Shown here piece by piece: positions 12,777-13,058 of a stretch of DNA of 64,000 nucleotides. The notes beneath the pieces are model-generated. The model was not told the origin of the DNA and ran no database searches. It saw only the letters and a list, made by a program, of their open reading frames with translations. The DNA is taken from the sequence record PQ511149.1. One strand, written 5' to 3'. Made by a program: the position numbers and the translations under genes. Source of the stretch: Escherichia phage NHEP11. Position 1 is the first letter of the stretch; each line of letters starts with the position of its first letter.

Positions 12777-12804
12777 TTAGATTTCCTCAATTATCCATAG
12801 GAGC

Positions 12805-12834
12805 ATTATACTCTGCTCCCGAGAGTTTGTAAAC
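12805..12834 (-). promoter_or_regulatory. T4 early-type promoter (cassette repeated at 41144-41171)
   Basis: GTTTAC, 18 bp, TATAAT; ~44 bp near-identical to the ndd-upstream copy. Confidence 0.55.
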
Positions 12835-13058
12835 TATTTTACTAAAGATTCAATATACTCATGAAGAGCTTTAGTAGCTACTGCCCACTTATTCTGATAT
12901 TCATTTTTCAGATTAGCACGAGACTGAACTAACAAGCGGTCATTAGTCGGAGGCAAAGATTCTAATCGTTGAATCTGTCGCCCGTAAATCATGGCCGCCG
13001 TTTCAGATTCATAGATAAGCCCTTTAATGTATTCATGCTGTTCTTTAGTCATTGGCAT
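12834..13058 (-). CDS. hypothetical protein
   Basis: 74-aa ORF. Confidence 0.4.
   Translation of the reverse strand: MPMTKEQHEYIKGLIYESETAAMIYGRQIQRLESLPPTNDRLLVQSRANLKNEYQNKWAVATKALHEYIESLVK

Follow-up and report, generated by a model that had tools for sequence, protein, structure and literature searches.

The DNA analysed here (the window) is a stretch of 64,000 nucleotides (nt) from Escherichia phage NHEP11 (sequence record PQ511149.1), a member of Mosigvirus, the RB69/JS09/ST0 group of T4-type coliphages. Two short intergenic elements in it, called copy A and copy B below, each combine a putative early promoter, an inverted repeat around the -10 and a Shine-Dalgarno (SD) sequence, and they occupy two gene-start regions 28 kb apart, where the surrounding genes all lie on the minus strand. 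Copy A stands between a pseT.1 homologue and two small open reading frames (ORFs) of 99 and 63 amino acids (aa) that lead on to pseT, and copy B separates a 66-aa ORF, the Ndd.1 homologue, from ndd. The features of the two loci are these:

12834-13058, minus strand: pseT.1 homologue, the gene upstream of copy A; 74 aa, 81% identity to T4 PseT.1
12774-12836, minus strand: complete cassette of copy A, from the pseT.1 stop codon TAG (which overlaps the -35) through the ATG of the 99-aa ORF
12829-12834, minus strand: copy A -35, GTTTAC, of the T4-type early consensus; equivalent to TTTACA with a 17-nt spacer
12814-12820, minus strand: copy A left arm of the inverted repeat, GGGAGCA, in the spacer
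12805-12810, minus strand: copy A -10, TATAAT, in the 8-nt loop GAGTATAA; its final T also opens the right arm
12799-12805, minus strand: copy A right arm, TGCTCCT; six Watson-Crick pairs and one G.T
12781-12792, minus strand: copy A SD block AATTGAGGAAAT, 5 nt before the ATG (12776)
12477-12776, minus strand: 99-aa ORF, first gene after copy A, without T4 counterpart
12286-12477, minus strand: 63-aa ORF, second gene after copy A, without T4 counterpart
12286-12776, minus strand: the module predicted to be driven by copy A (99-aa ORF and 63-aa ORF), followed by pseT
11390-12289, minus strand: pseT, after the 63-aa ORF
41097-41178, minus strand: complete cassette of copy B, from the stop codon TAA of the ndd.1 homologue (41176-41178) through the ATG of ndd (41099)
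41168-41173, minus strand: copy B -35, TTGTAC
41153-41160, minus strand: copy B left arm TGAGAGCA
41144-41149, minus strand: copy B -10, TATAAT, in the loop GAGTATAA
41137-41144, minus strand: copy B right arm TGCTCTCA; eight perfect pairs
41116-41131, minus strand: ndd-specific leader TACAAAAACATTAATC of copy B, 16 nt, kept upstream of ndd in Dhakavirus VR5
41104-41115, minus strand: copy B SD block AATTGAGGAAAT, 4 nt before the ATG
40653-41099, minus strand: ndd, 148 aa, predicted to be driven by copy B
40626-40645, minus strand: terminator-like hairpin after ndd

Both copies span the whole gap from one stop codon to the next start codon and are built in the same order: stop codon, AT-rich tract, -35, 18-nt spacer, TATAAT, the SD sequence GAGGAAAT and ATG. 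The 21 nt upstream of the -35 contain three G/C in A and five in B. Against the T-even form TTTACW-N17-TAYWAT, copy A matches at 12 of 12 positions (TTTACA-17-TATAAT) and copy B at 11 of 12 (TGTACA-17-TATAAT), and a generic sigma-70 scan (TTGACA/TATAAT) scores them 11/12, the best match of its region, and 10/12, respectively. In the minimum-energy fold a 7-8-bp inverted repeat encloses an 8-nt loop that holds the -10 (hairpin A, GGGAGCA-gagtataa-TGCTCCT; hairpin B, TGAGAGCA-gagtataa-TGCTCTCA). Early transcription by host sigma-70 RNA polymerase is predicted to begin some 7 nt beyond the -10, which would leave both hairpins wholly upstream of the +1; the right arm ends 23 nt (A) or 37 nt (B) before the ATG, and the SD lies outside the hairpin. 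By their consensus match and by what is known of T4, copy A would express the 99-aa ORF, the 63-aa ORF and pseT, and copy B would express ndd, the putative promoter role of both being supported by the T-even consensus match, the sigma-70 scan and T4 early-promoter biology (Hinton, 2010). The ndd gene is bracketed by this putative promoter of its own and by the terminator-like hairpin directly 3' of its stop codon (40626-40645).

A sequence-only reading of this DNA had taken the two sites for one promoter cassette used twice, and the sequences are there as it described, with some correction of detail. The short shared ATTTCCTCAATT is present in both copies and is in fact the minus-strand SD block AATTGAGGAAAT in reverse complement, which in B lies at 41104-41115 and not from 41102. 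The near-identical block, put at about 44 bp, is real and measures 42 nt (A 12793-12834, B 41132-41173), with 36 positions identical (86%). The extra stretch of the ndd copy, described as a 15-bp insertion, is likewise real and is a locus-specific leader of 16 nt (41116-41131) that is conserved in VR5.

Twenty-five minus-strand early promoters were curated in the window, giving 300 pairs over 42 aligned positions, and a position weight matrix was made from the 23 promoters other than A and B. The matrix predicts 20.9 ± 3.0 identical positions for A and B where 36 are found (P = 2.8e-7, about 8e-5 when corrected for 300 pairs), so that the pair is more alike than promoter consensus explains, as the sequence-only reading had supposed. 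Mean pairwise identity of the 25 promoters is 51 ± 11%, and at positions outside the hexamers A and B are 86% identical, against 44 ± 13%. An 18-mer, GAGCATTATACTCTGCTC, has exactly two occurrences in the window (0 expected from 100 shuffles), and a repeat search of the window returned A and B as one family (D5) with 82% identity over 51 nt. The A-B pair ranks third among the 300; it is an outlier but not unique, because the window promoters fall into several subfamilies, and other high pairs are 38866/38545 (95%), 63893/21901 (88%) and those of a TAGGRCTA group.

The reading that we prefer, and to which as a whole we assign a probability of roughly 0.85, is that A and B are paralogues within a single subfamily of T4-type early-promoter cassettes, of the kind known as promoter-early stem-loops (PeSLs). 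Their likeness would then reflect cassette copying or recombination between loci and not promoter constraint, and the subfamily would be older than the split of Tequatrovirus, Mosigvirus and Dhakavirus, with different genes downstream in each.

A 60-nt query matched 731 phage records, at three to four places per genome in Mosigvirus, two in Dhakavirus and one in Tequatrovirus. The complete Mosigvirus genome NC_041863.1 has four copies of the subfamily, before a 99/107-aa ORF, a 197-aa ORF, a 110-aa ORF and ndd, and the single T4 copy sits before motB. Over the 42 positions, A is identical to the Dhakavirus copies of locus A at 40 and to the T4 motB copy at 36, while B is identical to A at 36, to the 197-aa-ORF copy at 36 and to T4 motB at 34; B and the 197-aa-ORF copy have the same stem variant within Mosigvirus. 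Around the two sites, 1.1-kb stretches of the window are 97-99% identical to about 150 Mosigvirus records, with at least 80% of the query covered in 148 of 158 records (copy A) and 152 of 162 (copy B), and judged from these records both loci are stable within the genus. IMG/VR searches seeded with the Ndd and 99-aa ORF proteins returned only near-identical Mosigvirus contigs. Comparative data favour reuse and also the modular shuffling that the sequence-only reading had invoked: one cassette stands before at least five unrelated genes in three genera.

At locus A, the order of spanin Rz, Rz1, a small ORF and the cassette, on to pseT, is common to Mosigvirus and Dhakavirus-type contigs (VR5, VR25, IME341 and others), and the gene before the cassette is unrelated between the groups (pseT.1 in Mosigvirus, a 35-48-aa ORF in the Dhakavirus type). 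Some Dhakavirus-type contigs, and not others, have a 160-191-aa gene (MSLRDNSF... or MTLRDNSF...) and a small ORF between cassette A and the 99-aa ORF. That the 160-aa gene behind the Dhakavirus cassette might be motB was considered and rejected; the gene is an addition to the pseT locus. In T4, pseT.3, pseT.2, pseT.1 and pseT are contiguous, with no cassette, no 99-aa ORF and no 63-aa ORF, and relative to T4 the cassette and the two ORFs thus form an extra module that would express itself.

At ndd, the VR5 promoter is built like copy B, but its arms are different (CGAGAATCA/TGGTTCTCG, with a U.G on the sense strand). The two promoters agree at about 26 of 42 positions (a hand count that allows for a VR5 spacer 1 nt shorter; 15 when ungapped), whereas the VR5 leader TGGATAACAAAACATTAATC matches the B leader TGGATTACAAAAACATTAATC at about 19 of 21, also counted by hand. 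An A-type promoter module is thus joined to an ndd leader orthologous to that of VR5, and the ndd region is a mosaic.

Upstream of ndd, by 45-75 nt, a hairpin is also kept in T4 (GGCCG...CGGCC), Klebsiella phage Marfa (GGGAGC-tag-GCTCCC) and Enterobacter phage KMB19 (GGGCC-ttcg-GGCCC), with a degenerate promoter or none; GGAG or GAGGAT follows these hairpins, and then an A-rich stretch. A hairpin kept before ndd in the absence of a good promoter hints that it has a function in its own right, probably at the RNA level.

A possible account, though one that we hold to be clearly the less probable, is that A and B are ancient promoters inherited vertically and kept alike by strong purifying selection, with no recent transfer or conversion. 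The age of the subfamily (T4 motB and A at 36/42, the locus-A copies of Mosigvirus and Dhakavirus at 40/42) and the stability of both loci in Mosigvirus records are what such descent would produce. However, B is identical to copies at other loci at 34-37 of 42 positions and to the VR5 promoter in its own position at about 26, even though the leader there is orthologous; from the mosaic it follows that one lineage has had its promoter module replaced; an equivalent ndd promoter is missing from T4, Marfa and KMB19; and the stem variant of B recurs, inside Mosigvirus, in the copy before the 197-aa ORF.

A different cassette in the window gives a clean case of a gene lying between two copies:

38469-38875, minus strand: two direct copies of another early-promoter cassette (94% over 86 nt, family D4), flanking a 71-aa ORF
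38583-38798, minus strand: the 71-aa ORF, just upstream of motA

The order upstream of motA is terminator, cassette 1, 71-aa ORF, cassette 2, motA, and the identity of the two cassettes runs through the first three codons, up to and including ATGTCTAAA. In Mosigvirus tp3 there is a single cassette, the 71-aa ORF is missing, and the 321-nt gap ends inside the cassette. The ORF is found at 95% identity or more in 76 records, about half of the Mosigviruses, and in a diverged form at the same locus in Dhakaviruses. Most likely, genomes of the tp3 type lost it by recombination between the flanking repeats, and loss between flanking cassettes is the pattern that the PeSL model predicts. At locus A, at the ndd mosaic and at the 71-aa ORF, cassettes therefore adjoin insertions, deletions or replacements among relatives. 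Comparison shows that they mark sites of gain, loss and swap of gene modules, for which recombination would be the mechanism. As for the "mobile" promoter-stem-loop cassettes of T4-type genomes in the sequence-only reading, the PeSL features and the reuse are there to be seen, and mobility is a presumption from such patterns.

PeSLs have been described in RB49/phi1 (Arbiol et al., 2010; PMC2839356) and in T4/PST and KVP40/nt-1 (Comeau et al., 2014; PMC4122927). To judge from their sequences, both copies have every sequence-level feature of these elements. They end at the 3' side in an SD and a start codon, fill an intergenic gap behind an AT-rich tract, form a stem-loop, adjoin insertions, deletions and replacements, and belong to a set repeated through the genome (about 25 early promoters in the window, 41 in the complete Mosigvirus genome). 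A stem-loop that overlaps the -10 is one of the two commonest among five described PeSL positions, the other lying between -35 and -10 (Arbiol et al., 2010, PMC2839356; Comeau et al., 2014, PMC4122927). The AGCA/TGCT and AGGA/TCCT stems found here conform to the stem motif of T4/PST, AGNA-loop-TCNT, and the ndd region is itself one of the T4/PST examples (Comeau et al., 2014; PMC4122927, Fig. 6A). Mosigvirus (RB69-type) and Dhakavirus genomes were not analysed in those papers, save for one mention of JS98, and no PeSL description for RB69-type phages was found in the literature searched. The stems of A and B differ from one G/C-rich RB49/phi1 stem-loop, which had the role of an "effective terminator", in having no U-tract, and with copies tens of kb apart mini-circles between them are not expected; the 71-aa ORF, on the other hand, fits the flanking-PeSL model. 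A crowding of cassettes in hyperplastic regions, where PeSLs mostly stand among small non-essential early genes, is seen by eye. For the IP genes of T-even phages, at other loci, the account of Repoila et al. (1994) given by Arbiol et al. (2010) has early promoters as conserved linkers between interchangeable small genes.

The hairpin has been maintained through sequence change. From A to B one G-C pair is replaced by A-T, a compensatory change, and the T4 motB copy (GTTTAC-aaactctt-GGGACCA-gagtataa-TGGTCCC) has a double change from G-C to C-G relative to GGGAGCA/TGCTCC. The same geometry, an 8-nt loop NNNTATAN with the right arm starting at the last base of the -10, occurs in four other promoters of the window and in about 13 of the complete Mosigvirus genome. 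In that genome, 8 or more Watson-Crick pairs are found in 18 of 41 promoters, compared with 12.6% when arms are swapped, and the pairing of own arms was reached in 0 of 5000 permutations, in the window and genome-wide alike. Promoter hexamers alone do not imply a hairpin, because among the 106 distinct IMG/VR matches listed for GTTTAC-N18-TATAGTAG, which are mostly chance matches in unrelated phages and were used as a null, 98 have 0-2 pairs in the hairpin register; the remaining 8 are T4-type, with 6-11 pairs. An IMG/VR pattern with the outer stem left free found no further variants, and no Rfam family matched anything in the window.

Covariation was assessed in 27 promoters from Mosigvirus, T4 and Dhakavirus that had been picked by spacer length and -10 type only. 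The share of cells that pair is 79.6% in the class I register and 34-53% when the register is slid, and compensatory change is seen in 9 of 10 stem pairs. Cells changed on both sides number 45, against 9-18 in slid registers and 19.8 ± 3.8 in shuffles (reached in 0 of 500), although shuffle controls overstate independence among promoters that are related paralogues, a caution against our reading for which the slid registers are the safer control. Since changes in one arm are compensated in the other, the pairing, as far as these alignments go, is clearly under selection.

Several further points weigh against the reading of A and B as copied PeSL cassettes. The junction of the 160-191-aa gene that is present or absent in Dhakavirus-type contigs coincides exactly with the ATG and a second cassette is absent, so not every nearby insertion or deletion is cassette-mediated. 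The four copies in one genome are 29-66 kb apart and therefore cannot themselves yield small circles of the neighbouring-PeSL type. The hairpins of A and B are thermodynamically modest, with region z-scores of -1.8 and -1.2 against shuffles; other family members are stronger (z of -3.7 to -5.8, with promoter 21451 at -5.8 and T4 motB at -4.8). A strand test on internal mismatches gave a G.T:A.C ratio of 6:1 against a null fraction of 0.59, which is not significant (p = 0.14), and the corresponding count for the complete genome, 7:1 against a null of about 2:1, leans to the sense strand and is underpowered. Copying, in either direction, may have been an ancient duplication or a recent gene conversion at ndd, and promoter activity, start site and an RNA role of the hairpin are all predictions from DNA sequence.

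With both arms upstream of the +1, only RNA from promoters further upstream can hold the hairpin, and a terminator scan detected no convincing terminator between either cassette and the next promoter upstream. In such read-through RNA the hairpin may act where two gene modules meet, as a signal for insulation, attenuation or processing. An RNA-level border signal of this sort is the most likely role, at odds that we would set a little above even.

Other early promoters of the window extend this picture, three of them at inverted repeats that the sequence-only reading had listed and that are real:

63843-63887, minus strand: early promoter with a 14-bp inverted repeat, its right arm containing the SD (GGAGAA) and ending 4 nt before the ATG; class II, z = -3.7
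21413-21440, minus strand: early promoter of the TAGGRCTA subfamily, with the 8-nt-loop geometry of A and B and a 10-bp stem; z = -5.8
6768-6802, minus strand: early promoter with the inverted repeat TTGGTACAGGT/ACTTGTACCAA around the -10

A promoter in the T4 gene 30.7/30.8 region has GGTACAGG/CCTGTACC where the one at 6768-6802 has TTGGTACAGGT/ACTTGTACCAA. That most early promoters here lie in or next to inverted repeats, as had been claimed, is somewhat overstated; a perfect stem of at least 6 bp is present in 9 of the 25 curated promoters of the window and one of at least 8 bp in 6. A second class of promoters (63843-63887, 51099-51143 and the one whose -35 starts at 21901) has an anti-SD, TTCTCC or TTCCTC, right after the -35, which pairs with the downstream SD in a helix whose end lies 3-7 nt short of the ATG (z = -3.7 and -4.3). 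In these cases the SD would be masked in read-through RNA, and RNA from the promoter itself would be without the 5' arm. The 14-bp stem shows a compensatory change from A-T to G-C between the window and tp3, and there are about six more promoters of this class in the full Mosigvirus genome and three in T4, for which all statistics rest on about 70 kb.

In T4 e, soc, 49 and I-TevI, a hairpin masks the ribosome-binding site in long transcripts, and the promoter lies in its 5' strand (Uzan and Miller, 2010; PMC3014915). The elements described here are similar in that the promoter is within the hairpin and, given the predicted +1, its own transcript is without the 5' arm while read-through RNA folds. 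In the promoters at 63843-63887 and 51099-51143, moreover, the spacer anti-SD pairs with the SD of the next gene, which lies within the helix (promoters 63893 and 51149). They differ in that the T4 promoters are late ones and that in A and B the SD is outside the helix. It is conceivable, though we regard it as unlikely, that the inverted repeats of early promoters make up a genome-wide RNA "insulation" system and are not terminators, with the upstream transcript folding the hairpin; one class would mask the SD of the next gene, and the A/B class would be a signal for processing, decay or attenuation. If this is true, each gene module would rely on its own promoter, the late-gene trick of e, soc, 49 and I-TevI would extend to the whole early regulon, and the hairpins could add to the unexplained rapid shut-down of early gene expression.

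Rather doubtful is a role of the inverted repeat in DNA, whether as a cruciform or single-strand hairpin, as a symmetric protein site over the -10 that tunes promoter firing (e.g., for shut-off), or as a recombination hotspot. In about 15 promoters the geometry is fixed, the repeat enclosing the -10 exactly, and its arms, being upstream of the +1, are absent from the promoter's own RNA, as might be expected of a DNA element; crossovers in or adjoining the stem-loop were mapped by Arbiol et al. (2010; PMC2839356), who speculated on a DNA-binding protein, the shut-off of early promoters is unexplained, and the G.T/A.C strand test is not significant. However, the arms vary widely within one genome (GGAGCA, TAGGACTA, GATAGGGCTA, TTCTCCAGTAGTTG), which argues against one sequence-specific protein, the internal mismatches lean to sense-strand G.T (the 6:1 ratio, p = 0.14), and a hairpin is retained at this position in Marfa and KMB19, which are without an ndd promoter, as would suit an RNA element. 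Loops of 8 nt or of 13-19 nt are poor for cruciform extrusion.

A shade less probable again is that the stem-loop terminates or attenuates transcripts from upstream, as proposed for PeSLs. Such activity was shown for one G/C-rich RB49/phi1 PeSL stem-loop (Arbiol et al., 2010; PMC2839356), some annotators mark "terminator" plus "promoter" at this cassette, and A and B share with intrinsic terminators the form of a short intergenic stem-loop. They differ from them in that no U-tract follows the hairpin (A UAUGGAUAAUUG; B UGGAUUACAAAA), so they are not canonical terminators and a terminator role is doubtful for A and B. Their stems are also short and weak, having four G-C pairs in A and three in B, and are of modest stability, and both copies fail the terminator scan, which true terminators of the window, such as GGGGACTTCGGTCCCC followed by TTTTT, pass. 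Finally, it is highly improbable that the likeness of A and B comes only from what function demands of the -35, the -10, the SD and the length of the spacer in strong T4-type early promoters, with nothing copied, since, even though GTTTAC, TAnnnT and further consensus positions are common to all early promoters of the window (whose mean identity is already 51%) and extra consensus regions were noted in T4 early promoters by Hinton (2010), this account is refuted by the matrix test, is at odds with the identity outside the hexamers, and must face quite different spacers and arms in other promoters of the same genome, which mean that the shared positions are not needed for promoter function.

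Some further observations concern the same loci and the rest of the window. In both copies the predicted +1 falls on the A of an ATG (AUGGAU...; 12796-12798 and 41135-41137, minus strand). A leaderless mini-ORF starting there would have 17 codons in B and 3 in A, where its stop overlaps the SD. The T4 motB copy has GTG at this point, and neither the Dhakavirus copies nor the remaining two in Mosigvirus have a start codon; the ATG is probably there by chance. GGAU right after the hairpin in A and B, and GGAG in T4 motB, were considered as a candidate RegB cleavage site, which was set aside, the GGAG of T4 motB being predicted to pair as an extension of the helix. Four adjoining ORFs in NC_041863.1 (record positions 87637-90674) bear the RefSeq note "Endoribonuclease RegB", which suggests a cluster of regB paralogues or split genes. 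Canonical intrinsic terminators lie on the minus strand at 2394-2413, 6342-6364, 7288-7310, 21928-21950, 40413-40432 and 42750-42772, several with UUCG tetraloops (one example is GGGAGAC-TTCG-GTCTCCC followed by a T-run), and some of the window's intrinsic terminators are directly upstream of an early promoter. On the plus strand, repeats within coding sequences at 26661-27371 and 34678-34939 comprise families with a period of 108-120 nt (D6, D8, D12) and glycine-rich GGT/GGC repeats (D11); the close relative tp3 has long-tail-fibre genes at the corresponding position.

Taken as a whole, A and B are elements of an already described kind found in a further genus, a correct and fairly ordinary result whose novelty is low; the added detail is in the compensatory changes across genera, the ndd mosaic and a clean insertion/deletion flanked by cassettes. 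For practical purposes, they aid annotation of early transcription units in Mosigvirus genomes sequenced for phage therapy, and they offer natural, portable expression cassettes of 60-80 nt and predictable recombination sites for phage engineering. For the T4-type phages, Mosigvirus (with Dhakavirus) becomes a fourth branch in which promoter-hairpin cassettes appear to have been copied between loci and mark the borders of small modules, a finding that favours the PeSL model for the evolution of the variable regions in such genomes.

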